Under the pieces are notes generated by a model, which saw only the letters and a list, made by a program, of their open reading frames with translations, did no database searches and was not told the DNA's origin. A DNA stretch of 64,000 nucleotides from an uncultured Planctomycetales bacterium (GTDB taxonomy: Bacteria > Omnitrophota > Gorgyraeia > Zapsychrales > Fredricksoniimonadaceae): contig CAZNDZ010000003.1 in the NCBI GenBank assembly GCA_964572155.1, positions 138,224 through 202,223 on the forward strand. Direction: 5' to 3'. How positions within the stretch are numbered: position 1 is the stretch's first letter; every line of letters begins with the position of its first letter. Of this stretch, positions 3,505 to 63,854 are shown piece by piece. The translations under genes and the position numbers were made by a program.

Positions 3505-3511
3505 AAAATCC

Positions 3512-4645: not shown

Positions 4646-4647
4646 GC

Positions 4648-5574: not shown

Positions 5575-5580
5575 AAAAAT

Positions 5581-14950: not shown

Positions 14951-15067
14951 GAATTTTATATCCTTGTGTTTAAATGAACACTTGATTATAAAACCACATC
15001 TGTCTCTGTCAAGCAAATGTGACTAGCTATTGAATTATCCAACATAAAACGTTACTATACGTGAAAT

Positions 15068-42548: not shown

Positions 42549-43649
42549 CTATAAGGATTCCTTTAGCGCTTGGACAACTGTTTGAACCTGTTCCTTGGTC
42601 ATATGTGGGAACATGGGCAAGCTCATGATCTGACTTGCAACTTTCTCAGCAACGGGAAAATCACCTTGCTTATAACCTAATTCAGCATATGCTTCTTGCA
42701 TATGCAAAGGAATTGGATAATGAATCAAAACACCGATGCCCTTGGCTTTCATGGATTCCATGACTTTATCGCGATTCGGCACCGTCACTGCAAATGTTTG
42801 ATACACATGTGTACGATCAGATTTAACAAACGGCGCTGTCACACCTTTAAGATCCTTTAACAATGCTCCATAATGCGCTGCAGCTTGTGCGCGCATCGCA
42901 TTCCATTGATCCAAATGCTTTAACTTTGCATTGAGCACCACCGCTTGGATGGTATCTAGACGGGAATTTGTCCCTTTGATTTTATGTTCATAGCGTCCTT
43001 GACGACCATAATCACGCAACATCAACGCTTTTTCATAGATATCTTTATTATTGGTAACAATCATACCTGCGTCGCCACATGCACCTAAACTCTTTGTTGG
43101 GTAAAACGAAAAACACGCTAAATCACCCAATGAACCAACACGGCGGCTATGATAGCGAGCACCATGGGCTTGAGCGGCATCTTCGACAACTTTAATATTA
43201 TGCTTCTTAGCAATGGCTTGAATTTCATCCATGTCCGCTGGCTGACCATACAAATGCACGACGATGATGGCCTTTGTTTTCTTGGTAATGGCCTTTTCAA
43301 TCGCCTTTGGATCCATGTTGTACGTATCAGGTTGAATATCTACAAAAACAGGTTTCGCACGGCAGAAAGAAACACACAATGCCGTTGCAATGAAGGTATG
43401 TGTTGGAACAATGACCTCATCACCTTCTTGTAATTCTAAGGTGGATAAACCTAAATGCAATGCATCAGTTCCAGAATTAACACCGACGGCATATTTTGCT
43501 TCGCAATAATTGGCAAAAGCTTTTTCAAAAATCTGAGCCTGTTCACCTAAGATATAATCGCCTTTTTCAAAAACCTTCTTGAAACCCACGTCAACTTCAT
43601 CTTGGATCAACTTATTTTGCTCTTTGAAATCAATGAACGGAATGCTCAT
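42549..43649 (-). CDS. DegT/DnrJ/EryC1/StrS-family PLP-dependent sugar aminotransferase (catalytic Lys present)
   Basis: ACFSFYPTKSLGACGDAGMIVTN with Lys in the PLP Schiff-base position. Confidence 0.85.
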   Translation of the reverse strand: MSIPFIDFKEQNKLIQDEVDVGFKKVFEKGDYILGEQAQIFEKAFANYCEAKYAVGVNSGTDALHLGLSTLELQEGDEVIVPTHTFIATALCVSFCRAKPVFVDIQPDTYNMDPKAIEKAITKKTKAIIVVHLYGQPADMDEIQAIAKKHNIKVVEDAAQAHGARYHSRRVGSLGDLACFSFYPTKSLGACGDAGMIVTNNKDIYEKALMLRDYGRQGRYEHKIKGTNSRLDTIQAVVLNAKLKHLDQWNAMRAQAAAHYGALLKDLKGVTAPFVKSDRTHVYQTFAVTVPNRDKVMESMKAKGIGVLIHYPIPLHMQEAYAELGYKQGDFPVAEKVASQIMSLPMFPHMTKEQVQTVVQALKESL

Positions 43650-44712
43650 ATACGAAACTCACCTTTCTATATACGTCCTCTACAGACAAGTCTTTTAAAC
43701 AACTAAAGTGTTCACACTGAGCTACAAAAAATCGCTTATAACACGGCTGACATGCTAAATTTTTCTTAACAACCTCATGACCAGCCGACGGATAGGGGCC
43801 GTAAACTTTTTCATCAACTGGACCAAAAATACTGATCGTCTTGACACCGCTGGCAACGGCCACATGTAAGGGGCCACCATCGTTAAGCACAGCTAAACTA
43901 CAATATTTCAATAAAGCTGCCATTTGCAAGATCGATGTTTGACCAACCGCGGAATAAACTGGTGAGGCTGCCAGAGAGGTGATCTCTGTTGCTAACCCTT
44001 GTTCCTTGGCATCACCGAATAGTATAACAGTGACACCTAGATCCGCAATCATTTTATCAATTAACTGTGCATATTTTGCCGCAGGCCAACGTTTTCGTTC
44101 TGCACGACCTCCCCAACTAGCACCGCCACCTGGCACAACCGCAACCAACTTAGAAACTTGGCTTATGTCATTGTTAACCAACCATTGCCCTGCCCAAATT
44201 TCCTCATCTTTACCCACATTCAGACGCATTGCCTTAACAACAGCAGGCACGTCAATAAACTTTAATAAATCAAGGTAATATTCAACAACATGTTTATTTT
44301 CATAGCCTTTAAGCTCTATTTTATGGGTTAACATGATCCCTCGACCCTTAAAATCATAGCCGATGCGCATCTTGATCCCTGCAATCCATGCTAAACAACC
44401 AAACATACGGTTTAAGGAAAAATCAACGGCAACATCGCAACGTTCTTGCCGTATGGCGTCGATAAAAGCAAACCATCTTTTTGCGTAGGCAAAAAAATTC
44501 TTTTTCCGCGCTTTAACAAACTCGTCGCGTTCATAAGATATAACATTGTCTACATTTGGATTTGATTTGATAAGAACAGCGGTGCGGTCATTGGCGATGT
44601 AGGAAATCCGCGCAAGTGGATATTTTTTCTTGATGTTGGCGATAACAGGATCTGCAAATAAACAATCACCGACACCAAAAGGATTGATAATTAGAATACG
44701 ATTGAATGTCAT
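43630..44712 (-). CDS. GT9 ADP-heptose:LPS heptosyltransferase family
   Basis: ILIINPFGVGDCLFADPVI N-terminus and C-terminal GGGASW...NDGGPLHVA motifs typical of RfaC/RfaF/RfaQ. Confidence 0.85.
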   Translation of the reverse strand: MTFNRILIINPFGVGDCLFADPVIANIKKKYPLARISYIANDRTAVLIKSNPNVDNVISYERDEFVKARKKNFFAYAKRWFAFIDAIRQERCDVAVDFSLNRMFGCLAWIAGIKMRIGYDFKGRGIMLTHKIELKGYENKHVVEYYLDLLKFIDVPAVVKAMRLNVGKDEEIWAGQWLVNNDISQVSKLVAVVPGGGASWGGRAERKRWPAAKYAQLIDKMIADLGVTVILFGDAKEQGLATEITSLAASPVYSAVGQTSILQMAALLKYCSLAVLNDGGPLHVAVASGVKTISIFGPVDEKVYGPYPSAGHEVVKKNLACQPCYKRFFVAQCEHFSCLKDLSVEDVYRKVSFVYEHSVH

Positions 44713-47856: not shown

Positions 47857-47859
47857 AAT

Positions 47860-49260
47860 CTAAAATTGAAAATAAATAAACTCTTGGGCATTCATCACTC
47901 CCCAGCCTATTAATAAATATGTCATCCCTGCGTAAATCACCGTCTTAAGCACCCAGTGTTGTTTAAAAATCACCATTAAATCGTTTGTCTTAGCTTGCCA
48001 AATCTGAACCATTAACAAAGGCCCAATAAATGATATTAACTTTAACCACAAGACGCCTTGCTGACTAAGCTTGAAATTAAAAAATATCGCCTTTAACATC
48101 TCAATAACTTGCCCCATGGATTGAGCTCTAAACAATAACCATCCTAAAACCACAAAATGAAAAAATATGATGACCTTAAAAAATGATCCACCGTGCGCTT
48201 GTGCTTTATCCTTGGTTATAAACCTGTGCGCAATCAATAACAATGCTTGATACGCACCCCAAGCAACAAATGTCCACGCTGCACCGTGCCAAATACCTCC
48301 GAGCAACATGGTCAACAATAAAGCGATGTACATGGTGCGCTTGCCGTTTTGATTCCCACCTAAAGGAATATATACATAATCTCTTAACCACGTCGACAAA
48401 CTAATGTGCCAACGTTTCCAGAATTCTTTTGGATTTGAGGCAAAATAAGGCAAATTAAAGTTAATTGCGATCTCAAAACCCATGCATTTACCCAAACCAC
48501 GCGCCATATTGGAATATCCATCAAAATCACAAAAAATTTGAAAAGCAAACGCATATAATGCCACCATCACAACACCCCCTTCATAAGGACCAGGCGATGC
48601 AAATACAGGATTAACAATTTTAGCTAGATTATCAGCCACAAACATCTTCTCGAACAATCCCCAAAAAAAAAGAAAACATCCTTCATAGACACCGTTTATT
48701 GTAATTGTCCTTGGGGTGACAATCTGGGGCAAGAAGCTCTTGGCACGCATGATGGGTCCCGCCACCAAATGTGGGAAGTAAATGACAAATAATAAGTAAT
48801 CGCCATACTTTTTAGCTGGTTTAATCAAACCGCGGTAAACATCGACGGTGTAACTGATGGCCTCAAATGTATAAAAAGAAATACCTACGGGAAGGATAAT
48901 ATTTAAAACAAAGGTACTTGCCGGAGAGACTAGATGCAAACTTTCAAGTACAAGCGTAACATTCTCAATAAAGAAATTAAAATATTTAAAGAAGCCCAAA
49001 ATCGACAAATTGACAACGATGCTAATAATTAAATACTTTTTCTTATCTTTTAACAATGAGCTTAGCGCAATGCGTTTAGCACAAAAATAATCCACGCTAA
49101 TTGAAATCAACATCAAAGCCAAAAACTTCCAATTCCATGACGCATAAAAGAAACAGCTAGCAACAATTAACAAACGATTCTGCCAGCGATGCTTGAGCAA
49201 CAAATACAGCCCATACACGATTGTGAAAAAAACCAAAAATTTAAAGGAATTGAATATCAT
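47860..49260 (-). CDS. MBOAT family membrane-bound O-acyltransferase (AlgI/DltB/PatA-like); likely start at MIFNSFKF (track start is GTG at 49278)
   Basis: WHISLSTWLRDYVYIPLGGN and GGIWHGAAW hallmark MBOAT motifs with catalytic His. Confidence 0.9.
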   Translation of the reverse strand: MIFNSFKFLVFFTIVYGLYLLLKHRWQNRLLIVASCFFYASWNWKFLALMLISISVDYFCAKRIALSSLLKDKKKYLIISIVVNLSILGFFKYFNFFIENVTLVLESLHLVSPASTFVLNIILPVGISFYTFEAISYTVDVYRGLIKPAKKYGDYLLFVIYFPHLVAGPIMRAKSFLPQIVTPRTITINGVYEGCFLFFWGLFEKMFVADNLAKIVNPVFASPGPYEGGVVMVALYAFAFQIFCDFDGYSNMARGLGKCMGFEIAINFNLPYFASNPKEFWKRWHISLSTWLRDYVYIPLGGNQNGKRTMYIALLLTMLLGGIWHGAAWTFVAWGAYQALLLIAHRFITKDKAQAHGGSFFKVIIFFHFVVLGWLLFRAQSMGQVIEMLKAIFFNFKLSQQGVLWLKLISFIGPLLMVQIWQAKTNDLMVIFKQHWVLKTVIYAGMTYLLIGWGVMNAQEFIYFQF

Positions 49261-49280
49261 ATTTAAAATATAATGCACAC

Positions 49281-49955
49281 ATGCTACAACGCAAAAAGAT
49301 CATCTTTATATGCATATTGTTATGTATCAGCTTAATAACATTATTTTACCTTTCTCCTGAGCAAACATCGCCAATACGCGTTGCATGCGTTGGCGACAGC
49401 ATTACATCGGGTTCCGGAACGCAGGATAGATCACAAGATAGTTACCCTGCCCAGCTCGCACGCATGCTTGGCAAAGACTGGGATGTAAAAAACTTTGGAG
49501 CAAATGATACAAGTATTCTTTCTAAAGCAATAAAACCCTACACAAAAAAACGAGCTTTCAAATTAGCCAAAAGTTTTAAACCACACATTGTAATTATTTG
49601 CCTTGGCACCAATGATTCAAAACCAGAAAATTGGGCACATCATTCAGACTTTACAAATGATTACATAGCATTGATCAAGAAGTTCCAACGCCTACGTTCT
49701 CATCCGCGCATCTTTCTTTGCTTACCGCCCCCAGCTTTTACATCAGCATATGGCATCAATGACTCAATTATTAAAGAACAGATCATCCCTATGATCATAG
49801 ATATTGCCAAAAACACCAATGTCGAAACCTTAGACCTCTATAATGCCTTACAGGACAAACAAGACTTATATTTTGACAAGATTCATCCCAACACGCAAGG
49901 TTACACCATCATTGCCGAAAAAATCCACGATTTGCTCACCAAAAAACTCAATTAA
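49281..49955 (+). CDS. Secreted SGNH/GDSL hydrolase (O-acetyl esterase, Ape-like)
   Basis: Signal peptide; ACVGDSITSG block I, GTNDS block III, DKIHP block V. Confidence 0.8.
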   Translation: MLQRKKIIFICILLCISLITLFYLSPEQTSPIRVACVGDSITSGSGTQDRSQDSYPAQLARMLGKDWDVKNFGANDTSILSKAIKPYTKKRAFKLAKSFKPHIVIICLGTNDSKPENWAHHSDFTNDYIALIKKFQRLRSHPRIFLCLPPPAFTSAYGINDSIIKEQIIPMIIDIAKNTNVETLDLYNALQDKQDLYFDKIHPNTQGYTIIAEKIHDLLTKKLN

Positions 49956-51531
49956 CATTTAACTTCATGATGTTGTACGACGGGGTTTGCGCAACCACAT
50001 GATAATGTTCTTGGATAAACTGCATGGCATCCTGATAATATTTCCGATTAGATTCAACTTTAAAATGAACTGTATGAAAATAATCTGGCACTTGTTTTAA
50101 ACAAACCGTATATTGTGGCGGCTTTTCCTTCAAAGCTTTCATCCAGCCATTGTGCCAATCAGGGCTAAACCACGACGATGTTACAAGCGCAAAACGCCCC
50201 ACCCATGGGCGATTTACAATAAAATGCATGGCTCCCATTTCAGGATACATCAACATTGGTTCATGAGGCGCTACATGTTGATTTACAAAATCATTAATCC
50301 CGTGAATGTCTTCCGCTTGATCTTTTGGAACAACTAAACCCTTTAATCTGGGAATATCTAAGACAACCGTTTCTTGTCCTTTAAGTGGGCTTTTTCTAAA
50401 GAATAAAAATCTTTTATTAATCCGTTCTACACTAAAGATTAATGAAGAAATCACAATGATCGCTAGAAAAACCACAGCAATCTTTTTACGATAGATCATT
50501 AACGATTCAACCGCTCGTGCCAACAAATAAAATAGAAGAACTTTCTGAGGCTGTAAGGACATTTCAAAGACGCTTGCCCACAAATTTCGAAAGCCTGTCA
50601 CATAGACCATAAAACCATACACAGCAACGGCGGCTGCAGCTTGATCTACCCAATCTAATTGTTTCTTACGCCAACGCCATATCAAATACCCAACAAAAAT
50701 CAAATAACAATATACCGGCGTCATCTGACGAAAGTTTTTATTAATCGGTACAAATAACGCATGCAAAACTTGTCCTATACTAGAAGGAACAGGCTCAGTC
50801 TGAGGAAAAGTATGGAGCATTTCACGGGCAACAACAAGCTGGGTATTCATATATTCAAACCATGCACCATTCATGCCAAGGTAATAATTATATGGCAATA
50901 AGAACGCAAATAACATGATCCAAAATACCATCAATGCCCGACGATTGGCCCACGCTAAAACCACAGTGATCGCAACCCCTAAACAGACGCCAATCTCGAT
51001 GCTGGTTAACCCTGCAATGACGGTTAATGCTGTCATTGCGATCAACCATCCGCGATGCTTAGACTTTAAGAATCGAATTAAACACCACACGGCCAATAAA
51101 CCCCACCCGTAACGCATGCCTCCCCAATACGTGAAAACCACTCTGGGAAATGTTCGAGTGACTAAGACGGGAACAAAAGTATAAAATAACAATCGTGAAG
51201 GGATGATTTCACGCGCAATTAAAACACATGCACATAACGTTATGACTGTTCCGACGTAGAAATACGCGCTTAACACTGCCGCATTTGTTCCAAATACTTT
51301 CATTAACAAGGCAGGTAAATATAAATCCATTGGGGCGCGTAGATAAAAGAAATCCCGATACGGGATTTGACCATCTAAGATGGCGTTTATGCCGGGTAAA
51401 TACAAACCAAGCTCAAATAAATTTATACGTTGATGTAAAAAATACGGATGAAATGTTATCAAACACACAATAAAACAGGCTATCCATGCGTCTGTGCGTG
51501 TTAGAGGCGTCTTAATTAAGTTTTTTACCAT
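49948..51531 (-). CDS. Polytopic membrane protein with C-terminal soluble domain, putative GT-C-like (loop motif GQIPYRDFFY shared with 15068-16603)
   Basis: 527 aa; about 11 TM helices then about 150-aa hydrophilic domain. Confidence 0.45.
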   Translation of the reverse strand: MVKNLIKTPLTRTDAWIACFIVCLITFHPYFLHQRINLFELGLYLPGINAILDGQIPYRDFFYLRAPMDLYLPALLMKVFGTNAAVLSAYFYVGTVITLCACVLIAREIIPSRLLFYTFVPVLVTRTFPRVVFTYWGGMRYGWGLLAVWCLIRFLKSKHRGWLIAMTALTVIAGLTSIEIGVCLGVAITVVLAWANRRALMVFWIMLFAFLLPYNYYLGMNGAWFEYMNTQLVVAREMLHTFPQTEPVPSSIGQVLHALFVPINKNFRQMTPVYCYLIFVGYLIWRWRKKQLDWVDQAAAAVAVYGFMVYVTGFRNLWASVFEMSLQPQKVLLFYLLARAVESLMIYRKKIAVVFLAIIVISSLIFSVERINKRFLFFRKSPLKGQETVVLDIPRLKGLVVPKDQAEDIHGINDFVNQHVAPHEPMLMYPEMGAMHFIVNRPWVGRFALVTSSWFSPDWHNGWMKALKEKPPQYTVCLKQVPDYFHTVHFKVESNRKYYQDAMQFIQEHYHVVAQTPSYNIMKLNVN

Positions 51532-52318
51532 AAACCGCGAATCGTGTGTTGGGGACAGAATAAATTGTGTGCTGCTTAGACAGATCCCTTAAGTAATTAA
51601 AAACTTCTTTATGGATAATGTAATCAAAATCATGCCAGACGATTAAGCCGTTTTCGGAAACCATCTTAAAGGCATTTTCCGAATCCTTCTTTACAAATTC
51701 ATGGGAATGATTTCCGTCGATAAAAACCAAGTCGATCTTCCCATAATACGGACTAAAATCAAACGTGGATGAATCCCCAAACAATTCAACGATCTTATTA
51801 CACAATGGATGATTTTTATAAAATCGCTTGGCTATATTTGCCTGACTTAACTGCATCACCAACATATCATCATAAGAATTCCCCTTGGCTTGTGCTAAAT
51901 CATACCCTGGTGGCAAATCTAATGTATATATTTTACAATCAGACGGGCTATTGACCGCCATGTGAAGCGTTGTAAAACCATTATAGGTGCCAATCTCAAA
52001 AATTGTTTTTGGTGCATATCCGTCGACTATCGTGGCCAAAAAATGAGTCTCCATTGAACGGGTTACTTGCGCTTCTTGATTAAATAAATTACTTTTGGCA
52101 AACAATGTCTTGCTACTTAATTTCTTAAAGAAATCCGTTTCTTCAAAATTCTTCAATCCCCCATGCGATGACTGAAAGAATTCATTTACCGATGAGAAAA
52201 TTGGAAAAAGAAACTGCTTCATCTTCTTAGGATGAACGATCAAATAAAAGAACAAATTGATCAAAACCCATAAAAGATTAACAATCTTTTCAAAATACCA
52301 TCCCAGTTTATTCAACAT
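51512..52318 (-). CDS. Class I SAM-dependent O-methyltransferase (TylF/CmcI, Methyltransf_24-like) with N-terminal TM helix
   Basis: FEIGTYNGFTTL motif I, IDGNHSHE. Confidence 0.65.
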   Translation of the reverse strand: MLNKLGWYFEKIVNLLWVLINLFFYLIVHPKKMKQFLFPIFSSVNEFFQSSHGGLKNFEETDFFKKLSSKTLFAKSNLFNQEAQVTRSMETHFLATIVDGYAPKTIFEIGTYNGFTTLHMAVNSPSDCKIYTLDLPPGYDLAQAKGNSYDDMLVMQLSQANIAKRFYKNHPLCNKIVELFGDSSTFDFSPYYGKIDLVFIDGNHSHEFVKKDSENAFKMVSENGLIVWHDFDYIIHKEVFNYLRDLSKQHTIYSVPNTRFAVYGKKLN

Positions 52319-52321
52319 AAC

Positions 52322-53401
52322 TTACGTAACAACTTTCTTATAAACTTCATGTGTTTCTCGTGCAGTTTTCTCAAATGAAAAATCTAAAGCCCTTTTTAAA
52401 GCTTTTGATTTATAAGAGGCGCGCAAATCCGAATCTCCTAAAATACGCTGTAACATGCTAGCTATAGTCGATGGATCATTAGGATCAATTAATAATGCCG
52501 CATCTTTGGCAATCTCCCCACAACTCGAAAGTGAAGAACTCACCACACATGCCCCTGCGGCAAATGCCTCTATAATCGGAAAACCAAACCCTTCATAAAA
52601 AGACGGAAATACAAATGCTGTGCAGGTATTATAAAGGAAATTAAGCTCTTGATCACTGATAAATCCCGTAAAGATCACCTGAGACTCGAGCCCCATCTCT
52701 TTAATTTTCGCCGCAACATCGTCACTCTTCCATCCTTGCATCCCAACTACAACCAAAGGCACCTTAGTTTTTGACTCCGCCATAGCATGAACCAATCCTA
52801 ATAAATTCTTGCGTGGTTCAATAGTGCCAACAAATAATAAAAAGTCACCCTGTATGTTTTTTGTCTTTAAGAAATTCTTTGCCTGAGATAAATCTTTAAG
52901 GGCATGAAAAATATCATGATCAACACCATTATGCACAACACAAGAACGTTCTTTTGGAAATTCAAAGAAGCGATGCAGATCACTGCGTGTACTCTCTGAA
53001 ACGCAAATGATCCGATCAGCACGTGCCACAATCCCCTGCATATACTTTTCGGTTAGATCTATGGTTTCTTGAGTATGACTTTGCGGATATGTCCGATAAA
53101 TCATATCGTGGATGGTCACCACAACTTTACCGTTGAAGCTTTCTATGTCGGCAGGACTGGGCAAGTGATACAAATCACCCCAAGGCAGAGGCCTTGAAGA
53201 ATGATGAATGACACGATGAAAATTGGGATAATTAAAACGTGGGAGCTTACGTTTAAAATCAAAACGCTTCTTTTGCGCATAAAGCATGTAATCATTGCTG
53301 GCGTCCATCTTGCCTAATTGATCGATCAAATTGTACGTATAGCGTCCAATGCCCGTACGGTTACTTAAAAGAATCGATCGGCAGTTAACAACAATGCGCA
53401 T
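52322..53401 (-). CDS. GT4 family (GT-B fold) glycosyltransferase
   Basis: FVGTIEPRKN and EGFGFPIIEAFAAG EX7E motif. Confidence 0.85.
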   Translation of the reverse strand: MRIVVNCRSILLSNRTGIGRYTYNLIDQLGKMDASNDYMLYAQKKRFDFKRKLPRFNYPNFHRVIHHSSRPLPWGDLYHLPSPADIESFNGKVVVTIHDMIYRTYPQSHTQETIDLTEKYMQGIVARADRIICVSESTRSDLHRFFEFPKERSCVVHNGVDHDIFHALKDLSQAKNFLKTKNIQGDFLLFVGTIEPRKNLLGLVHAMAESKTKVPLVVVGMQGWKSDDVAAKIKEMGLESQVIFTGFISDQELNFLYNTCTAFVFPSFYEGFGFPIIEAFAAGACVVSSSLSSCGEIAKDAALLIDPNDPSTIASMLQRILGDSDLRASYKSKALKRALDFSFEKTARETHEVYKKVVT

Positions 53402-53406
53402 GCGCT

Positions 53407-54600
53407 TTAAACTGAATACCCTTTGCTTTTTAAGAATTTACCAACCACGTCGATCACATGGTCCATCTGTGAAATTTCAATGTCTTGATGGCAGCCGATG
53501 TGGGTTCCGTTGTCAGAACAGAATTCTGTTTCTGGGAAATCACCTAACTTATGACCCATGAATGCATAGCTTGGGGTTTGTGTGGGGATGGAATAGAACA
53601 AATTACGGGAATCAACACCTTCTTTCTCAAGATAGGTGACAAATTCATCTTTGGTAAATTTCATCCCTGGGCGCACGATCATGGAGAATGCATGAGGGCC
53701 TAATTTTTCATGGGCATCTTCTTGAACATAGATAAAATATTTCTCAAATTGCTTAAAGTGCTTGATCAAATATAAGATATTGCGACGACGTTTTTCTAAG
53801 ATGTCATGAAAAATTTCAATATTACCTAAACCCACCGCAGCTTCAATCTCATTCATCTTGGCAGAGAATCCAATACGCTCAAAACGGAATTTACCGTCGA
53901 TGCCATGATTACGCAAACTAGCAGCTGCCTTCGCCATTTGTTCATTGTTGGTGATGATCATGCCACCTTCGATCGTTGTAACAATGTGTGCAGCATATAA
54001 TGAGAAACATGCCATATCACCGATGGCACCAATTTTTTTGCCATTATATTCAGCACCATGTGCTTCGGCGGCATCTTCAATCACATACAATTTATGTTTT
54101 TTAGCGATGGCCATGATTTGATCCATCGCCGCAGGTTTTCCCATCAAATGTACGGGCATGATCGCGCGCGTGCGTGGGGTGATCGCGGCTTCTATCTTAT
54201 CGGGATCAATATTTAGCGTATTGCGATTCACGTCGACAAACACTGGTTTGAAACCTGCTTGCAACACCGCATTGCCTGTTGCCACAAAGGTTAATGCAGG
54301 GATGATAATCTCATCACCACGCTTGGCGCCAAAATCATATAAGACCGCACAGGCAATAGCATCAGCATCTGTTCCAGATGATACAGCAATCCCATATTTC
54401 ACGCCAAAGGTCGCGGCAAATCTTTCTTCAAACTCTTTTACATATTTACCCTTGGTTAACCATTTTTCGGCAATGGCCACATCGATTAACTTCTTGGCTT
54501 TTTCAGTGATCGACACTGTTCCAAATGGAACCTTATAATTGGCCTTCTTCGCTTCTTGTCCGTCGGAAATCGCGGTTGCTTTATTAAAATCTGTTTTCAT
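53407..54600 (-). CDS. DegT-fold PLP/PMP enzyme with His replacing the Schiff-base Lys: NDP-4-keto-6-deoxy-sugar 3-dehydratase (ColD/E1-like) rather than aminotransferase
   Basis: ACFSLYAAHIVTTIEGG, His205 (codon at 53986-53988) aligned to Lys of 42549-43649 and to the active-site His of ColD/E1. Confidence 0.65.
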   Translation of the reverse strand: MKTDFNKATAISDGQEAKKANYKVPFGTVSITEKAKKLIDVAIAEKWLTKGKYVKEFEERFAATFGVKYGIAVSSGTDADAIACAVLYDFGAKRGDEIIIPALTFVATGNAVLQAGFKPVFVDVNRNTLNIDPDKIEAAITPRTRAIMPVHLMGKPAAMDQIMAIAKKHKLYVIEDAAEAHGAEYNGKKIGAIGDMACFSLYAAHIVTTIEGGMIITNNEQMAKAAASLRNHGIDGKFRFERIGFSAKMNEIEAAVGLGNIEIFHDILEKRRRNILYLIKHFKQFEKYFIYVQEDAHEKLGPHAFSMIVRPGMKFTKDEFVTYLEKEGVDSRNLFYSIPTQTPSYAFMGHKLGDFPETEFCSDNGTHIGCHQDIEISQMDHVIDVVGKFLKSKGYSV

Positions 54601-55310
54601 TTAAGCTCCTTCAAGTGTTCTTGGGCCCACGCATAACGTTCTGGGGTGCCGATATCAATAAACTTATTTTGAACTTCAAACCCATAAAATCCTTGTTCTA
54701 CCAAGTGTGGGAAAAAGTCATATTCAATTGAGAACTTCTCAGGGGTTTTAACCAAATCAAAAACATTGCGGTTAAAACAATACGTACCTGTATTAATCAA
54801 AGCAGATTTCACCTCGGGTTGTTTTTCTTTAAAAGCGGTGATCTTGCTTTTACCGTCTACTTCGATCGTACCATAATCCCGCGCATCATCTAAACGTGTA
54901 ACGGCAATCGTTGCTTGTGCATGATTGTCATCATGAAACATGACAAGCTGATTATAATCGATCACGCAAAAACAGTCACCGTTCATCGCCAGAAATTTGT
55001 CTGTTTTAACTAACCCAGATCCCTTCTTAATAGCACCACCGGTACCAAGTGGCGTCTCTTCTCGGGAAAAAACCAACTCTAAATTTTTATGTGCTCCCTG
55101 CAAATGACGCTCAACAGCTTCTGCGCCATGGCCTGTGCATAAAATAAAACGGCGGCCACCAAAGGACGCCAAATATTCAATCAAAATAGAAATAAAGGGC
55201 TTATCACCAACTTGAACCAACACTTTCTGCTGGCCCCCTGTGACTGACGCTAATCGCTTGCCTAAACCACCGGCTAAAATGACTATATCAACATTAGATA
55301 AACGCGACAT
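54597..55310 (-). CDS. Sugar-1-phosphate nucleotidyltransferase, HddC-like (D-glycero-alpha-D-manno-heptose-1-phosphate guanylyltransferase)
   Basis: 237 aa; IVILAGGLGKRL N-terminal NTP-transferase motif; size and context with HddA. Confidence 0.7.
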   Translation of the reverse strand: MSRLSNVDIVILAGGLGKRLASVTGGQQKVLVQVGDKPFISILIEYLASFGGRRFILCTGHGAEAVERHLQGAHKNLELVFSREETPLGTGGAIKKGSGLVKTDKFLAMNGDCFCVIDYNQLVMFHDDNHAQATIAVTRLDDARDYGTIEVDGKSKITAFKEKQPEVKSALINTGTYCFNRNVFDLVKTPEKFSIEYDFFPHLVEQGFYGFEVQNKFIDIGTPERYAWAQEHLKELK

Positions 55311-55312
55311 GA

Positions 55313-56311
55313 TTATTTAACAACGCCTGTATCTGGCTGGAAGAAAATAATTTGACTGCCTAAATTCTCAAACTTGATCGGGACTTCTAATAATTTCTTT
55401 AACGCACTACGCACTTTATCTTGTTTATGTGGTTGCACGAAAAGCAGCACAAAGCCACCACCGCCAGCACCTAAAAGTTTACCGCCAATAGCTCCTGCGC
55501 GGATGGCTGTGGCGTACATGTCATCGATATTATCCGTTGATATTTTATCTGACAATGTGCGTTTTAATTTCCAACTCTCATCTAACAATTTGCCGAATTT
55601 TAAAATGTTTTTACCATTTAAGATCTCAAGCGCTTCGCCTGCCATTTCATACATACGGCCAAGCTCTTGTTTTTTATTTGGAATGTTCTTAATTTGATGT
55701 TGTGCGATTTGAGACGCTGTTCTCGAAAATCCGGTAAAGAACAACATCAGATGATCTTGCAATAAATTTAATTTCTCAATGGGCAACGTCACCGGTTGAA
55801 CGCGCAAATGATTCTGCCCACCAAACTCAATGTAATTAAAACCACCGTATGCCGCCAACATTTGATCTTGGCATCCGACATTTTCTTTAATCATATCTTG
55901 TTCAATGTGAATCGCTTCTTTGGCCAATTGTTCTTTGGTTGTCATGCGACCTTTAAGCGCATAGAGCGAATTTAACAATCCGACGGTAAATGACGAACTG
56001 GAGCCTAAACCGGTACGCGCTGGTAAATCCCCATCATGATGAATTTCAACGCCTTCTTTAATTTTAAGGTAACGTAAGACTTCGCGAACAGAAGGGTGAT
56101 CAATGTCATTGATGCCGTGCACATGTTCCATCTTGGAATAGATGATGCGGCTCTTATGTTCAAAGAATGGTGGCAAATAACGGCAGCTGATATAACAATA
56201 CTTATCAATGGTGGTGGCCAAGACAGCGCCTTTATGTTCATTAAACCAACCATTGTAATCAGTTCCGCCGCCAAAGAAAGACATGCGAAACGGTGTGCGT
56301 GAAATAATCAT
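55313..56311 (-). CDS. hddA: GHMP kinase, D-glycero-alpha-D-manno-heptose 7-phosphate kinase HddA-like
   Basis: MIISRTPFRMSFFGGGTD N-terminus nearly identical to HddA consensus MIISRTPLRISFAGGGTD; GHMP motif PARTGLGSSSS. Confidence 0.75.
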   Translation of the reverse strand: MIISRTPFRMSFFGGGTDYNGWFNEHKGAVLATTIDKYCYISCRYLPPFFEHKSRIIYSKMEHVHGINDIDHPSVREVLRYLKIKEGVEIHHDGDLPARTGLGSSSSFTVGLLNSLYALKGRMTTKEQLAKEAIHIEQDMIKENVGCQDQMLAAYGGFNYIEFGGQNHLRVQPVTLPIEKLNLLQDHLMLFFTGFSRTASQIAQHQIKNIPNKKQELGRMYEMAGEALEILNGKNILKFGKLLDESWKLKRTLSDKISTDNIDDMYATAIRAGAIGGKLLGAGGGGFVLLFVQPHKQDKVRSALKKLLEVPIKFENLGSQIIFFQPDTGVVK

Positions 56312-57831: not shown

Positions 57832-58761
57832 TTAGATATTCGCGTACTGGTTGCGTTTAATGACTTGGTAGCCTTTGATGAGTTCAGCGATGCCAGCTTG
57901 CAAGCTTACACTTGTTCTAAAGCCTGTTTTTTCAATCTTTTCATTGCTGACAATGTAATCGCGCTTATCTGGATCTTCGCCGATGGTTGCTTCCACAAAA
58001 TAAAAATCAGGAACTAACTTTTTAATCTCTTGGCACAACTGCAATTTTGTTAAATTTGCATCACTAAGTCCAACATTATAGGGTTGCTTTTTCATCTTGT
58101 CAAAATTATTCAACCCATGAACGAAAGCGCGGGAAATATCGCGCACGTGAATGTAGTTACGGTTAAAATGCGCTTCAAATAAAACCACAAAACGATCATA
58201 CACCGCACGATAGGTAAAATCATTAACCAACAAATCTAATCGCATGCGAGGTGAAACGCCAAACGCAGTGGCTAAACGCAACGTGATGCCGCCTGCATCT
58301 AAGATAGCATTTTCAGCGTCCACTTTAAGTTTTCCGTACAAAGAAATTGGACGCAATGGTGTCTCCTCGGTGCAATGCTTGCCCTTTTCACCCACCCCAT
58401 AACCGCTATTGGTGGTTGGGAAAATCATCATTTGCTCTTTAGACTTCAAATCAATGATCATGTTAATGGAATCTAACAAGATGGTCGTCGCACCCACAGG
58501 ATCTTTGGCACATAATGGCGCGCCGGTTAAACAAGCCAGTGGAAAGATCGCATCAACGCTCTTCATCAGTTTAGTGATTAAGACTTTATCGCGCGTATCC
58601 CCACGAATGATCGTCAATTTTGGATGATGGCAGCAATCAAGCAGCGAAGATTGATTGTACATAAAGTTATCTAAGGCAATGACCTCGTGCCCTTCGTTTA
58701 ACAAAATTGGCGTTAAAACCGACCCAATATACCCTGCCGCACCCGTAACTAAAATTTTCAT
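57832..58761 (-). CDS. NAD-dependent epimerase/dehydratase family SDR
   Basis: MKILVTGAAGYIGS, YGKLK catalytic YxxxK. Confidence 0.8.
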   Translation of the reverse strand: MKILVTGAAGYIGSVLTPILLNEGHEVIALDNFMYNQSSLLDCCHHPKLTIIRGDTRDKVLITKLMKSVDAIFPLACLTGAPLCAKDPVGATTILLDSINMIIDLKSKEQMMIFPTTNSGYGVGEKGKHCTEETPLRPISLYGKLKVDAENAILDAGGITLRLATAFGVSPRMRLDLLVNDFTYRAVYDRFVVLFEAHFNRNYIHVRDISRAFVHGLNNFDKMKKQPYNVGLSDANLTKLQLCQEIKKLVPDFYFVEATIGEDPDKRDYIVSNEKIEKTGFRTSVSLQAGIAELIKGYQVIKRNQYANI

Positions 58762-59691: not shown

Positions 59692-60276
59692 TTACTGGCT
59701 GGTTTTCATACCTTTGGCATAATACTCTTCGTTATAGTAGTTGCCGTGTTCAATGATGAGCGTCGACTTTCCGTCGGTGCGCGTTAATGCTTTCTGATAT
59801 GCTGGGAAAATTTGATCCGCTGTATCAAGTTCAATGACTTCGATCCAATGAAATAATGCACGAAATGCTTGTGCGTAATTCCCAATATGTTGATGCCCTG
59901 GGTGCACTGGCGCATCAGGACCTGTTGCCACTCTAATGATAACTTTAATCGGCCATTTACCTTCGCTGACATCTGGCATCTTATCAATCATATTAGCCAT
60001 ATCCGCCGCCGCTAACATCAAAAAGTTTTGTCTAGGATAAACCGAAACAGGTATATATCCTGCCAATGCCATCCCTAAGGTAAACTGCATTTGAAAGCTT
60101 TCATTGATGGGCATTTCAAGCGTGCGGTCTTTAGGGCAATCCCTCAAGGTTTGAAACATGAATGTGCCAGGCCCTGCAACGGTTTGACCAACAAACTGCA
60201 CCTTATCTTGAGTGGCAAGCCACTCCATGGTGCGTTTTAATTCATCAAAATATTTGAGTTGTGTGGATGTTTCCAT
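59692..60276 (-). CDS. Transketolase-like TPP enzyme, pyrimidine-binding (Pyr) domain subunit
   Basis: INESFQMQFTLGMALAG (catalytic Glu region like TK VREFGM) and GPDAPVHPGHQ. Confidence 0.55.
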   Translation of the reverse strand: METSTQLKYFDELKRTMEWLATQDKVQFVGQTVAGPGTFMFQTLRDCPKDRTLEMPINESFQMQFTLGMALAGYIPVSVYPRQNFLMLAAADMANMIDKMPDVSEGKWPIKVIIRVATGPDAPVHPGHQHIGNYAQAFRALFHWIEVIELDTADQIFPAYQKALTRTDGKSTLIIEHGNYYNEEYYAKGMKTSQ

Positions 60277-60925: not shown

Positions 60926-61558
60926 TCAAGCCAAAATAGGCAATATTAGTCTCCTTAAGAATAATCCAATACTCCCCCACATAGTGATAAACCATAACGG
61001 CAAGCCTATGACATGAACTCCTGGGTATCCCCAAATCCCAAAACCAACCCCGACATATTCAATAACAGCGCCCATCAAAACAAAATATCCTACATAGATT
61101 AAATCATATCGCTCATGAAAGAAAATTAGACTTAAACCCATTAAAGCAAAGGTCACATACGTCAATAATGATTGATCTGCAATGCATGAAAAACTTAATG
61201 CAAACCCCACGGCAAACATCCCAGCTACTATTTTATTGGTTTTAGGTTGTGGCCCACCCAATAATCGCAATCCATGTAATACATAAAAACCATACATCAA
61301 ACATTCCCATACAGGAATACCAAGAAAGTCTGGGTTTTTAAAATAAAACACACCTTGTTTCACCGCCATGACATCTAAGACAGAGAATACTGAACAAACA
61401 CTAAAAAATAAGATGATCTCCTGAAAGACTAGCGGATTAAATGTGATCAGCCACAGAACACAAAAAGCGACCGCTTTAACATAATTCCCAGGAACCACAA
61501 CCAAAATGGCGATGGTTAGTATCAGTTGGGTTATGTATTTTAACTGTTGAGAGTTCAA
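60926..61558 (-). CDS. Small polytopic membrane protein of unknown function, translationally coupled (ATGA) to the FAD oxidase gene
   Basis: 210 aa; about 6 TM helices. Confidence 0.45.
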   Translation of the reverse strand: MNSQQLKYITQLILTIAILVVVPGNYVKAVAFCVLWLITFNPLVFQEIILFFSVCSVFSVLDVMAVKQGVFYFKNPDFLGIPVWECLMYGFYVLHGLRLLGGPQPKTNKIVAGMFAVGFALSFSCIADQSLLTYVTFALMGLSLIFFHERYDLIYVGYFVLMGAVIEYVGVGFGIWGYPGVHVIGLPLWFITMWGSIGLFLRRLILPILA

Positions 61559-63192
61559 TTGGCAGAATAGCGACGAGGCGCAATGATCCCTTGAGGGTCA
61601 ATCGCATCTTTAATTGTTTTTTGCATCGCCCAAAATGTTTTATCCACGTTAACCAAATCCCCCATCATGTCAATATTGGCACGATATGGAAAGAACCCAA
61701 GTTTACGACCCTCTTCTAAAAGCTCAGCAAAACACGCCTTGGCTTGAGCGACTTCCGTTGGATTTTGTGGATTAAATAAAATCGGCACCGTGCTATCAAA
61801 ACATCGGTCTGATAACGTCGTCAAGGTAATGAGCGGCTCTATGCGATGCTTCACGCAAACTTGATTCACAAAATCAACATACGTACGCACGGTTTCTGGC
61901 TTCATGGGCACTAAGGGTGCATACCATATCAAACCACAACCATCTCGTGCGGGATTAAGTTCTGAAGTATCAGGCAATCCCAACGGCATCTTGCGATAAC
62001 ACAACGGCAAGGCGATTTGATTGGGCCTTCCCTCTAAGATATCAAAAGATAATTTCATTTTTTGAATACGGTTTAATGATGTCTTTGTCCATTGCGCTGG
62101 TAAACATGATAAAATCTTCTCTAGGAAATTTAATTGTCCTCGAGAAAGAAAAATCAATCGCTTGGTGTGTGGATAAACTTTATTGCGCAACACCCGCTTG
62201 GCAACATCCACCATTTCTTTCTTACCATAAAATGATCCCAAACATGTCCATGGTGCAAAATCCATATCTGTTGCCATCTTCTTTAGGATGTTGACATAAT
62301 TAGCTGGGTCTTTATCAATTTCTTCAAACGGATAATATGCGCTCATCGATAAAAGGCGCAAAGAATTCATAATATTGATAGATCCCGTCACCCCGCCAAT
62401 CTCGCGCAATGTCTCACGCACCAAAGCCACGGCTTTCTCAAGGTTCTTTTCATCACGCATCTCAAAGATAAATGCCCCGACCGACTCCGGACGCGCAGCT
62501 AATTGAATGGTGATCTTGGTGACTATGCCAAAGTTACTTTGGGTAAATAATCCATCTAAATAAGGGCCAATGCCCCACTTAAATATCTGGTCAACATTAA
62601 TGCAGTCTTGTTCATAGATGGCTGAATGATAGATGCTCCCATCGGGAAGCACGGCCTCTAAACTCATGAGCGATAAGAAATGATCTGAAATAGGCGTTAA
62701 TCCATAGCCGCGTTCTAAGGCATTCCCTAAAATACTTGCATGAGGACCAGCACCTGTGACGGGCGTTAAATATGCATCATCATGTTCTTTAAGGAACTTA
62801 GACAACAATTCTTGCGTTACCCCAGGCTCAACGGAAACAGTACCGAGATCCGCATCAAACTCTACGATGCGATCCATCCCTGAAAGATCTAAGATAACAC
62901 AGCCATTGGTCACTGGGTTGGCTGAACCATATCCCCAATTATTCCCCTTGCTTATTGGATACAGCGGCACTTGATATGTCGATGCCACTTTAACGATGGC
63001 CACAATCTCGTCAGTTGTCTTTGCTTGTAACGTACAGAAAATTTGGCGCGGCGCACATGCGGTTGTATCTTGAGTGTATTTAACCAAAGCCTCTTGATTC
63101 ATTAAGACGCGAGCATCACCTAAAATTTTTTGCCAGCTAACAATCGCTTGATTAATCTGTGTCATGTCGGTCATTGGACAATCCTTCTCCAC
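61555..63192 (-). CDS. FAD-linked oxidase (PCMH/vanillyl-alcohol-oxidase superfamily, FAD_binding_4 domain)
   Basis: 545 aa; N-terminal FAD-binding region TTDEIVAIVKVASTYQVPLYPISKGNNWGYGSANP. Confidence 0.8.
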   Translation of the reverse strand: MEKDCPMTDMTQINQAIVSWQKILGDARVLMNQEALVKYTQDTTACAPRQIFCTLQAKTTDEIVAIVKVASTYQVPLYPISKGNNWGYGSANPVTNGCVILDLSGMDRIVEFDADLGTVSVEPGVTQELLSKFLKEHDDAYLTPVTGAGPHASILGNALERGYGLTPISDHFLSLMSLEAVLPDGSIYHSAIYEQDCINVDQIFKWGIGPYLDGLFTQSNFGIVTKITIQLAARPESVGAFIFEMRDEKNLEKAVALVRETLREIGGVTGSINIMNSLRLLSMSAYYPFEEIDKDPANYVNILKKMATDMDFAPWTCLGSFYGKKEMVDVAKRVLRNKVYPHTKRLIFLSRGQLNFLEKILSCLPAQWTKTSLNRIQKMKLSFDILEGRPNQIALPLCYRKMPLGLPDTSELNPARDGCGLIWYAPLVPMKPETVRTYVDFVNQVCVKHRIEPLITLTTLSDRCFDSTVPILFNPQNPTEVAQAKACFAELLEEGRKLGFFPYRANIDMMGDLVNVDKTFWAMQKTIKDAIDPQGIIAPRRYSAN

Positions 63193-63854
63193 ATCGAAAA
63201 GAAGTCGTAGAATTTAATGATAAACCAATTGATAAAAAACCATGCATAAACAAACAAGAAACCTAATGGAAAAACTGCGTGGCCATAATCAGGCAAGAAA
63301 TCAATGACACTTAAATAACAAATCACATACCCCAATAACATGAGCCGTATTTTATTTCGCTCAACACGATCTTGCGCTCTACCTAAATGCACAACCAAAT
63401 TAACAAGTGCCATCAAACCAAAAATACCAAAGTATACTAAGAATATTGGATGCAATACCCCTGCATTAAACCAGAAACCCCAAGGATATACACGCGCCTG
63501 ATCAACCAACAAGTTTGTTGCTAACAACGGGATAAAAAGAACTGCTCCGACGTAATATCCCATCTTAATAAACTTACGTTGTGCCTCTATCTGAAGAAAA
63601 CTAACCACCAATTGATAGGAAGCCACGGATAAAAAAACGCAACCGATGTACGCAATGCGCGAAAAGAATGTTGCCGCAACCACGTCATGTGCCGTTAGCA
63701 CAAAAAAACTACCCATCTGCCAAACAAATCCACAGAACACCTGAACCAAAAAAGCATCTCGGGTCAATGACTTCTCATGCCTGCCTAAAACAAAGGCTGC
63801 CATCACCAAACAAAGGCATGAACAAAACAAATACCCTAATGCTAAACCACTCAT
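63171..63854 (-). CDS. Polytopic membrane protein of unknown function (7-TM)
   Basis: 227 aa; 7 hydrophobic helices; ATGA overlap with upstream partial gene. Confidence 0.45.

Follow-up and report, generated by a model that had tools for sequence, protein, structure and literature searches.

The question raised by this locus is which nucleotide-linked sugar is made by a compact run of minus-strand genes in an uncultured Planctomycetales bacterium (GTDB lineage Omnitrophota; Gorgyraeia; Zapsychrales; Fredricksoniimonadaceae). The genes lie in a stretch of 64,000 nucleotides (GenBank assembly GCA_964572155.1, contig CAZNDZ010000003.1, positions 138,224 to 202,223), called the window throughout, and center on three open reading frames (ORFs), encoding a HddA-like kinase, a HddC-like nucleotidyltransferase and a DegT-fold protein, here called His-DegT, that carries a histidine at the position of the Schiff-base lysine. 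An earlier sequence-only reading had proposed that these ORFs supply GDP-heptose to a ColD/E1-type C3-dehydratase, resulting in a 3-deoxy, and probably also 6-deoxy, heptose. The three ORFs proved to be real, with the strand and coordinates claimed for them (Table 1), and the Fcl-like gene and a short-chain dehydrogenase/reductase (SDR) gene adjoin them as had been stated; together with their neighbors they form a co-directional, tightly packed operon, in which consecutive genes are 2-9 nt apart or overlap by 4 nt. Overlooked by that reading were a split thiamine diphosphate (ThDP) enzyme that resembles the pyruvate dehydrogenase (PDH) E1α/β pair, and a radical S-adenosylmethionine (rSAM) enzyme with a B12-binding domain, both of which are conserved in the cassette. 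We favor, with moderate confidence, a route in which GDP-heptose is first oxidized to a 4-keto sugar and next deoxygenated at C3 by ColD-style pyridoxamine phosphate (PMP) chemistry, with His205 as the acid/base; the resulting 3-deoxy-4-keto sugar would then be elaborated by the ThDP and rSAM enzymes. The parts are of known kinds, and it is their assembly that is undescribed, i.e. the natural pairing of a Cj1427-type dehydrogenase with a C3-dehydratase, the clade to which His-DegT belongs, and the E1α/β and rSAM partners.

His-DegT matches DegT_DnrJ_EryC1 (PF01041) with 350 bits over residues 31-386, and the histidine at the Schiff-base position is indeed present. The sequences of ColD (PDB 2gms) and E1 (3bcx) were recovered via the PDB alignments of two metagenomic relatives, and a direct four-way MAFFT alignment then matched FSLYAAH(205)IVTTIEGG of His-DegT with FSSFYSH(188)HIATMEGG of ColD, VSFYPAH(220)HITMGEGG of E1 and FSFFGNK(186)IITTGEGG of perosamine synthase (Per). 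The partner of His205 in ColD is the first histidine of "SHH", with chain index 190, equal to His188 after two tag residues, an offset deduced from the 390-residue chain. Consistent with this, phmmer searches against the PDB aligned FSLYAAHIVTT to FSFFGNKIITT of the Caulobacter GDP-perosamine synthase, including its K186A mutant entry. No lysine occurs in residues 191-223, so that a lysine elsewhere in the active-site loop, named beforehand as a refuting outcome, was not seen, and the aminotransferase in the same window that had been chosen as comparator has the expected lysine (FYPTKSLG). His205 is invariant, both in the close homologues with a recognizable motif (all of 118-120) and in the relatives from genome loci, which span 45-100% identity (81/81). 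To our knowledge, histidine at this position goes with 3-dehydratase activity in all DegT-fold enzymes that have been solved or characterized (ColD, E1, SpnQ).

The fold and the histidine substitution agree with the "ColD/E1-type" label, but the descent that it implies does not stand. Identity of His-DegT to ColD and E1 is 31% and 29%, respectively, vs. 37% to the aminotransferase Per, and the closest solved structure is a GDP-perosamine synthase (223 bits, vs. 167 bits for ColD). An insertion after RxHG, common to ColD (~20 residues) and E1, and holding the CYCAPGCDNTC iron-sulfur cysteines in E1, is missing; the four cysteines of His-DegT include none that is conserved in its family, and the [2Fe-2S] motif of E1 (the CYCAPGCDNTC region plus a cysteine of EDCCD) is absent. 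The RfbH model scores 256 bits, vs. a cut-off of 423, and Pfam/domain annotation found no E3-like reductase gene in the operon. E1 (DdhC/RfbH), in contrast, depends on a [2Fe-2S] cluster together with the reductase E3, and the lack of both in our system fits a glutamate-driven regeneration of PMP, as would be expected of a ColD-like enzyme. The likeness to ColD and its partner ColC, which make colitose (ColD is the GDP-4-keto-6-deoxy-D-mannose 3-dehydratase), extends to the DegT fold, the histidine, the absence of iron-sulfur cysteines, an Fcl-family partner and a GDP-linked 4-keto substrate, although the substrate predicted here would keep its C6 and C7 hydroxyls.

The wider family places His-DegT among many other proteins of its type. 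In the best 150 representatives drawn from 1.84 billion proteins, the His205 column holds histidine in 81, lysine in 67 and asparagine in two. A neighbor-joining tree of 114 full-length sequences, which is midpoint-rooted, carries no bootstrap support and is to be taken as indicative, gathers all lysine-type sequences (45/45), including Per and the window aminotransferase, in one clade, and leaves all histidine-type sequences (69/69), including ColD, E1 and this family, outside of it. Within the latter, ColD and E1 share a subclade, and the window family together with representatives P0121 and P0125 forms another. From these comparisons, His-DegT is a member of a large histidine-type assemblage, and is neither a recently mutated aminotransferase nor an orthologue of ColD/E1. 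Its close homologues (78-100% identity, > 120 clusters, including one identical protein) are mostly labelled Candidatus Omnitrophota or Omnitrophica. Domain fusions among the histidine-type representatives were also considered as hints to function, and yielded just an intein (P0140), tandem DegT-DegT proteins (P0126, P0139, P0164 and P0172), and fusions to GT2, GT1 or SDR domains (P0123, P0124, P0173 and P0175).

The distance from ColD and E1, the missing insertion and the unsupported tree speak against assigning dehydratase function to His-DegT, as do two residues in the active site: the dyad is Ala204-His205 where ColD has Ser187-His188, and Lys155 (HLMGK), kept in 80/81 family members, takes the place of an asparagine in ColD and E1, and of a glutamine in Per. 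These features, together with the structural proximity to GDP-perosamine synthase, could be explained if His-DegT were a lysine-independent transaminase, or if Lys155 were a relocated Schiff-base lysine, in which case the pathway would proceed through a 4-amino-4-deoxy-heptose (hepto-perosamine) that is then modified. Position 155, which we take to be analogous to Asn194 of aspartate aminotransferase, is probably near the cofactor O3' by that analogy. Among representatives at 50% identity, it is occupied by lysine (23) or arginine (17) in 40/80 histidine-type proteins, and by lysine in none of the 67 lysine-type proteins. Arginine cannot form a Schiff base, and because it is nearly as common as lysine at this position, an electrostatic role of residue 155 is more likely than a relocated lysine. 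In addition, dehydratase chemistry is what the histidine marks in the enzymes named above, all histidine-type sequences fall outside of the lysine clade, and a ColD-type enzyme stands in for His-DegT in a related Azospirillum gene set (described below). Overall, we consider this alternative to be very unlikely. Across the representatives P0121-P0270, the residue at position 155 covaries with the His/Lys switch, and it may, in addition to the histidine, be a hallmark of many uncharacterized histidine-type clades.

The proposal that GDP-heptose is the substrate holds, and the strongest evidence for it comes from the adjoining SDR, which had not been drawn upon before. The SDR matches PDB entries 6vo6/6vo8 with an E-value of 2.4e-119 (401 bits; residues 2-308 aligned to 4-311; ~60% identity) and keeps the YxxxK motif, YGKLK being paired with YGIDK. 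At 96% identity, the 6vo6/6vo8 chain falls into one cluster with a C. jejuni protein of 313 aa, and we take the chain to be Cj1427, which acts together with Cj1430 and Cj1428 on capsular GDP-heptose in C. jejuni HS:2. Cj1427 is a GDP-heptose C4-dehydrogenase, the bound NADH of which is recycled by conversion of α-ketoglutarate to L-2-hydroxyglutarate (PMC10680097; PMC7949155). The kinase, which begins MIISRTPFRMSFFGGGTD, has HddA/WcbL-type heptose kinases as its best solved relatives (118-127 bits), with mevalonate kinases next (54 bits), and the best solved relative of the transferase is HddC of Y. pseudotuberculosis (5xhw/6jq8, 133 bits), ahead of the GDP-mannose pyrophosphorylases (81-99 bits, with ManC at 99), CDP-glucose (58 bits) and dTDP-glucose (52 bits) enzymes. 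The transferase thus does not group with the dTDP/CDP-glucose enzymes, an outcome that had been named as a possible refutation. A GmhB-like phosphatase gene of the haloacid dehalogenase (HAD) type is located ~12 kb downstream, and is syntenic in many Omnitrophota loci. Also downstream, and in further support of a heptose, is a GT9 gene of the heptosyltransferase II type, which passes its model cut-off (Table 1).

Several of these assignments are less secure at the level of family models, and this counts against reading the genes as standard members of a GDP-heptose pathway. The HddA and HddC labels stand with regard to the nearest solved structures, but both proteins fall below the NCBIfam equivalog cut-offs: HddA is the best model for the kinase, at 152 bits vs. 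600, and HddC scores 137 bits vs. 300 on the transferase. The GmhB-like protein reaches 160 bits on NF006506, vs. a cut-off of 178. Furthermore, the four-gene GDP-heptose set is incomplete, as no GmhA-like ORF was found in the window, nor in 79 of the 80 genome loci that we fetched and searched with the window proteins, the sole match being in locus L060. The probe for this search was E. coli GmhA, and a match to a SIS-domain protein in S. magneticus RS-1 later showed that it works; GmhA-like genes are part of the RS-1 and L060 cassettes.

A hexose could instead be the starting point, with the kinase and transferase activating mannose or a related sugar, and the operon leading to a GDP-3-deoxy(-6-deoxy)hexose derivative similar to colitose. 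Among NCBIfam models, the transferase in fact matches mannose-1-phosphate guanylyltransferase best (145 bits, vs. the 137 bits of HddC), the window has no GmhA, the combination of His-DegT with an Fcl-like protein mirrors ColD plus ColC, and seven distant relatives carry a 4,6-dehydratase of the Gmd class. On the other hand, the SDR is ~60% identical to a heptose-specific C4-dehydrogenase, the kinase is HddA-like, i.e. of a kind that acts on a sugar phosphate, no Gmd is found in the window, and heptose genes recur in related cassettes, as GmhB-like genes in synteny in Omnitrophota, as a GmhB domain fused to the transferase in Azospirillum, and as the GmhA-like gene of RS-1. We regard a hexose substrate as highly unlikely, and GDP-heptose as well supported by these comparisons. 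The presence of GmhA- and GmhB-type genes in the RS-1 and Azospirillum cassettes also led us to reject a transketolase-type chain building of the sugar skeleton.

The assignment of the SDR changes the predicted product. Its Ser/Thr region reads TNS, and not TDE or SxE, which we take to be the motifs that mark 4,6-dehydratases, so the SDR is not a 4,6-dehydratase. No ORF in the window reaches the Gmd cut-off in searches for Gmd/DmhA with jackhmmer, NCBIfam models and a genuine E. coli Gmd probe. Two other candidates for a 4,6-dehydratase were rejected: a distant SDR at 14015-15016, which scores 82 bits on the gmd model, below cut-off, and PseB at 5581-6609, which is part of a separate nonulosonic-acid cluster. 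Of the 3-deoxy and 6-deoxy features predicted by the sequence-only reading, the former is retained and the latter is dropped: the operon carries a C4-dehydrogenase and no 4,6-dehydratase, and its 3-deoxy product is consequently expected to retain the 6-hydroxyl. The intermediates anticipated from these gene assignments would be GDP-D-glycero-4-keto-heptose and, after His-DegT, GDP-D-glycero-3-deoxy-4-keto-heptose.

Among 45 well-flanked loci (those with 7 kb or more of upstream and 3 kb or more of downstream DNA), His-DegT is found within 9 kb of a Cj1427-like gene in 35, of a 4,6-dehydratase-class gene in seven, of neither in three, and of both in none. Such mutually exclusive 4-keto generators are the pattern expected if His-DegT needs a 4-keto sugar. 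The NCBIfam top matches of the seven 4,6-dehydratase-class genes are gmd or dTDP-glucose dehydratase, with that of L067 reaching 408 bits vs. a cut-off of 415 on the gmd model. The loci in question (L049, L054, L057, L058, L060, L067 and L082) are all distant relatives, and would, judging from this gene exchange, make the 3,6-dideoxy series.

This arrangement differs from that of C. jejuni, where the HS:5/HS:11 route to GDP-3,6-dideoxy-heptose runs through a 4,6-dehydratase, a ColD-like C3-dehydratase, a C5-epimerase and a C4-reductase. The two systems have in common a Cj1427-type C4-dehydrogenase, a histidine-type B6 enzyme beside a 4-keto generator, and an Fcl-like reductase; in C. jejuni, however, the C3-dehydratase follows a 4,6-dehydratase, and its pairing with Cj1427, natural in the window operon, is artificial. 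The window operon also lacks the cupin epimerase, adds the ThDP and rSAM enzymes, and has a His-DegT of another clade. The C. jejuni C3-dehydratases are true ColD orthologues, with 62-67% identity to ColD (PMC10440746). When Cj1427 and the HS:5 C3-dehydratase were mixed in vitro by Raushel's group, they yielded GDP-D-glycero-3-deoxy-4-keto-heptose, and such 3-deoxy-heptoses were called novel (PMC10680097).

The remaining members of the operon suggest that the 3-deoxy-4-keto sugar is not the end of the pathway. The larger subunit of the ThDP pair matches Pfam E1_dh (48.8 bits) and NCBIfam PDH E1α (62 bits), with an intact GDM-X27-N ThDP/Mg motif in register with E1α, and the smaller matches Transket_pyr (31 bits), with an MPINE motif that we take to be equivalent to TPISE, which contains the catalytic glutamate of E1β. 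With diphosphate-binding (PP) and pyrimidine (Pyr) domains, the ThDP/Mg motif, and a location in a keto-sugar cluster, the pair is predicted to have a role in C-branching. The rSAM enzyme has the CPMKCSFC form of the CxxxCxxC motif and an N-terminal B12-binding domain, an arrangement consistent with the cobalamin-dependent class B architecture. Its NCBIfam matches (HpnJ 153/578 bits, BchE 117/481, AprD4 90/500) are all far below cut-off, and its best PDB match, to AprD4 (6fd2, 70 bits), covers the core only, such that the reaction is not transferable by homology; methylation, dehydration or C-C bond formation are all possible. Its architecture is shared with HpnJ, BchE and AprD4, of which HpnJ, like Cds and PtmC, is proposed to build cyclopentane carbocycles from sugars, whereas AprD4 deoxygenates a sugar diol. 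The Fcl-like protein keeps Cys109, Tyr136, Lys140 and His179 of E. coli Fcl, with Ser107 replaced by glycine, and has E. coli GDP-L-fucose synthase as its best PDB match (265 bits; other entries for this enzyme ~244 bits); given these residues, it could epimerize as well as reduce.

Precedents exist for the addition of a branch at C4 of a deoxygenated keto sugar. In the pathways to yersiniose (YerE/YerF) and erwiniose (ErwE/ErwF), a 4-keto sugar undergoes C3-deoxygenation by the histidine-type B6 enzyme E1, with E3, followed by ThDP-dependent acyl addition at C4 and reduction, the product being a 3-deoxy-4-C-branched sugar, as we predict here. Those sugars are CDP-linked 6-deoxyhexoses, however, and YerE and ErwE are single-chain enzymes of the acetolactate synthase type and not E1α/β pairs. 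Two-subunit E1α/β-type ThDP enzymes inside deoxysugar clusters are known from avilamycin (AviB1/AviB2) and paulomycin (Pau11/Pau12), although these belong to actinomycete secondary metabolism and act on dTDP/UDP sugars, and the window pair is a minimal PP plus Pyr version of ~200 aa each. YerE and ErwE add an acyl group at C4 of 3,6-dideoxy-4-keto sugars (PMC9306805), and the E1α/β homologues AviB1/B2 and Pau11/12 have been proposed to install C4 acetyl branches, an activity that was proposed and not reconstituted (PMC4753412).

Conservation across genomes ties these enzymes to the sugar genes. With a 100-bit threshold for the ThDP pair, most members are kept in at least 35 of the 45 well-flanked loci (Table 1), and the SDR, rSAM enzyme, kinase, transferase and ThDP pair occur together in 28/45. 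The ThDP pair is located within 9 kb of His-DegT in 45 of 51 loci with enough upstream DNA. The hosts include Omnitrophota, Planctomycetota, deltaproteobacterial/Desulfovibrionales, Nitrospira/Nitrospirota-labelled, archaeal and candidate-phylum metagenome-assembled genomes. Kinase, transferase, His-DegT and Fcl-like protein, which had been noted together in the window, thus stay coupled across phyla. While the pair in the window is truncated relative to normal E1α/β, relatives in other phyla have full-length E1α and E1β at the same position. In loci L003-L082, the short pair (~205 + 195 aa) goes with an rSAM subtype whose score against the window protein is 760 bits or more, and the full-length pair (~330 + 350 aa) with a second subtype of ~400 bits. 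Because the rSAM subtype covaries with the length of the pair, the two enzymes seem to co-evolve, which suggests that they act on related intermediates.

Two annotated plasmids of cultured bacteria lend further weight to these assignments. On pDMC1 of S. magneticus RS-1 (L083), the order is GT2, GT2, rSAM, NUDIX, kinase, E1α, E1β, Fcl, His-DegT, Cj1427-like SDR and transferase; its His-DegT has the motif FSLYVAHIISTIEGG and is 50% identical to that of the window, and the kinases are 59% identical. Further along lie an L-2-hydroxyglutarate oxidase (19397-20599, 327.7 bits vs. a cut-off of 299) and the GmhA-like SIS protein (20643-21266), the coordinates of both being those of the L083 entry. 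An LhgO-like gene is also found inside the L050 cassette (7576-8721). By analogy with Cj1427, the RS-1 oxidase would recycle the L-2-hydroxyglutarate released by the dehydrogenase. Plasmid AZO_p6 of Azospirillum lipoferum 4B (L084, 8351-14849) combines a Cj1427-like SDR (59%), E1α and E1β with a ColD-type His-DegT (FSHHISTMEGG) and an HddC-GmhB fusion, and has no rSAM gene; in this set, the place of the window His-DegT is taken by another lineage of the histidine type. Four further Azospirillum plasmids and a replicon of Sinorhizobium fredii gave similar SDR matches, and the plasmid searches as a whole returned only Azospirillum, Sinorhizobium and Solidesulfovibrio.

The main competing view is that the kinase, transferase, C4-oxidase, His-DegT and Fcl-like protein make up the whole pathway, and that the product is a plain 3-deoxy (or 3,6-dideoxy) heptose with the ThDP pair and rSAM enzyme as mere neighbors; in a variant, an AprD4-like rSAM enzyme would dehydrate the C6-C7 diol and so supply 6-deoxygenation. 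Several observations are in line with it, and against C4 branching. The window ThDP pair is minimal (203 + 194 aa); AprD4, the best solved relative of the rSAM enzyme, is a diol dehydratase, i.e. itself a sugar deoxygenase; and the Fcl-like protein scores 365 bits vs. a cut-off of 500 on the GDP-L-fucose synthase model, yet retains the catalytic Tyr/Lys and the epimerase Cys/His, and a quaternary C4 would leave such a C4 reductase without a substrate. A strong match to the ThDP pair is also missing in 10/45 loci, and the rSAM enzyme in 8/45. Against this stand the interleaving of both enzymes among the sugar genes of a single operon, their co-occurrence with His-DegT across phyla, and the covariation of the two rSAM subtypes with short and long pairs, while the Fcl-like protein is conserved less than any other member, and several loci that bear the ThDP pair lack it. 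Because the ThDP pair and rSAM enzyme belong to the conserved cassette, a plain 3-deoxyheptose is unlikely as the end product. A phosphonate pathway, which would likewise combine a split decarboxylase, a B12 rSAM enzyme and a nucleotidyltransferase, was rejected: there is no phosphoenolpyruvate mutase, and the ThDP pair matches E1_dh/Transket_pyr and not TPP_enzyme_N/C.

The identities of the genes, the residue His205, the conservation of synteny and the mutual exclusion of the two 4-keto generators are observed, and it is from them that we infer every chemical step of the favored route to an elaborated 3-deoxy-heptose. D-glycero-D-manno-heptose 7-phosphate, supplied by a GmhA whose gene lies elsewhere, would receive a phosphate at C1 from the HddA-like kinase, lose the one at C7 through the GmhB-like phosphatase and be guanylylated by the HddC-like transferase. 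The Cj1427-like SDR would then oxidize C4, leaving the 6-hydroxyl in place, with its bound NAD+ regenerated, as in Cj1427, by reduction of α-ketoglutarate to L-2-hydroxyglutarate. In the third step, PMP generated from L-glutamate would form a ketimine at C4, and His205 would act as the acid/base for abstraction of the C4' proton and loss of the 3-hydroxyl, giving GDP-3-deoxy-4-keto-heptose and NH3; the glutamate half-reaction would release the α-ketoglutarate that the second step consumes. The split ThDP enzyme may next attack the C4 ketone with an acyl carbanion, probably acetyl, comparable to YerE and AviB1/B2, and the rSAM enzyme and Fcl-like reductase/epimerase would finish the sugar. The order and chemistry of this fourth step are the weakest part of the proposal. 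Searches of the literature gave no report that connects radical SAM or cobalamin enzymes with GDP-heptose, and none that deals with heptoses in Omnitrophota. Finally, the adjoining GT4 glycosyltransferase would attach the finished sugar to a glycan of the envelope. What results is probably a heptose derivative that is 3-deoxy and branched at C4.

Two more specific products can be envisaged. The more ambitious is a caryose-like carbocyclic nonose, in which the 3-deoxy-4-keto-heptose would receive an acetyl unit (C8-C9) at C4 from the ThDP enzyme, after which an HpnJ-like rSAM reaction would form a C7-C8 bond and close a cyclopentane. Such a route accounts for the structure of caryose (4,8-cyclo-3,9-dideoxy-nonose), including its 3-deoxy position, quaternary C4, terminal methyl group and retained C6/C7 oxygens, and we offer it as a speculative idea of low probability. 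The biosynthesis of caryose has been reported as unknown (PMC9092360). In a milder version, without cyclization, the product may be a hepto-yersiniose (3-deoxy-4-C-hydroxyethyl-heptose) that is C-methylated by the B12 enzyme.

Table 1. Genes of the cassette and associated features of the window, with the basis of each assignment and, for cassette members, the number of well-flanked loci in which they were found.
Feature	Coordinates	Strand	Basis	Loci (of 45)
ThDP-enzyme subunit, PP (diphosphate-binding) domain only, PDH-E1α-like, 203 aa	60279..60890	-	Pfam E1_dh, NCBIfam PDH E1α	35 (pair, 100-bit threshold)
ThDP-enzyme subunit, Pyr domain only, E1β-like, 194 aa, without transketolase-C domain	59692..60276	-	Pfam Transket_pyr	35 (pair, 100-bit threshold)
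Fcl-like GDP-sugar epimerase/4-reductase, 309 aa	58758..59687	-	NCBIfam GDP-L-fucose synthase, PDB	31
Cj1427-like SDR	57832..58761	-	PDB 6vo6/6vo8 match	35
B12-binding-domain radical SAM enzyme, 502 aa	56321..57829	-	Pfam B12-binding (59 bits) and Radical_SAM (67 bits)	37
HddA-like GHMP anomeric sugar-phosphate kinase, 332 aa	55313..56311	-	GHMP_kinases_N and _C domains	39
HddC-like sugar-1-phosphate (guanylyl)transferase, 237 aa	54597..55310	-	NTP_transferase domain	38
His-type DegT-fold enzyme (His-DegT), 397 aa; predicted PMP-dependent GDP-4-keto-heptose C3-dehydratase	53407..54600	-	DegT_DnrJ_EryC1 (PF01041)	
GT4 glycosyltransferase, candidate transferase for the product	52322..53401	-	Pfam Glycos_transf_1 and Glyco_transf_4	
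Class I SAM methyltransferase (Methyltransf_24/_3), possible O-methylation of sugar or glycan	51512..52318	-	Pfam	
GT9 heptosyltransferase II-like enzyme (context: heptose-containing envelope glycan)	43630..44712	-	TIGR02195, 143.6 bits (cut-off 134.6)	
Canonical Lys-type DegT aminotransferase (comparator)	42549..43649	-	inside Lys clade of neighbor-joining tree	
GmhB-like HAD-IIIA heptose-1,7-bisphosphate phosphatase, 195 aa	41201..41788	-	NCBIfam NF006506	

G+C content is ~40% throughout the window, and 38-64 kb is a single long run of minus-strand genes. The GT4 gene directly follows His-DegT in most Omnitrophota loci, and the synteny of the class I SAM methyltransferase is limited to the closest relatives. 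Upstream, at 60926-63854, three genes separate the cassette from its usual neighbors solely in this genome and its twin contig L001; they encode a HisKA_7TM-like protein with seven transmembrane segments, a 545-aa FAD_binding_4/GlcD-like flavoprotein (61555-63192) and a 210-aa polytopic membrane protein. All three were rejected as cassette parts, not being kept in other cassettes, and a role of the flavoprotein as a 2-hydroxyacid (2-hydroxyglutarate?) oxidase or recycler is a guess. In relatives (L003, 757-3107; L009, 25-3685), one or two NDP-sugar 6-dehydrogenases and a UXS/ArnA-like SDR precede the cassette, and the window counterpart of this SDR would lie just past 63854. This block is probably a separate pathway to a UDP-uronic-acid-derived sugar, and its 313-aa SDR (L003, 2154-3107), which follows the NDP-sugar dehydrogenases and is UXS/ArnA-like, was likewise rejected as a cassette member.

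Elsewhere in the window, the separate nonulosonic-acid-type cluster (1361-6609) comprises, in addition to PseB (492 bits vs. a cut-off of 408), an RmlD-like reductase (4648-5574), a NeuB/PseI-like synthase (2440-3504) and an acetyltransferase (1361-1906). Within the same gene run as the cassette, an MBOAT acyltransferase (47860-49278) has a GDSL-TPR protein (46276-47856) on one side and, on the other, a GDSL esterase in the opposite orientation (49281-49955), and this region (46276-49955) looks like a glycan O-acylation module. Two tandem GalT/HIT-like genes (34023-35989; GalP_UDP_transf and DUF4921/DUF4931 matches) adjoin GAPDH.

Knowledge of how GDP-heptose is modified comes almost entirely from Campylobacter, where 3-deoxygenation always comes after 4,6-dehydration, and 3-deoxy-6-hydroxy-heptoses have so far been laboratory products; the operon described here looks like a natural route to them, combining a C4-dehydrogenase with a C3-dehydratase. 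His-DegT represents a large and uncharacterized clade with a signature of its own (Ala-His205 and Lys155), the members of which are labelled "aminotransferase" in databases despite the missing catalytic lysine. Protein identities of 78-100% across well over a hundred Omnitrophota lineages, together with the occurrence of the operon in other phyla, point to a widespread and undescribed envelope sugar, and the linkage of a ThDP E1α/β-like pair with a B12 rSAM enzyme is a tractable entry to the biosynthesis of branched or carbocyclic higher sugars, with a cultured host, S. magneticus RS-1, carrying the cassette on its plasmid pDMC1.

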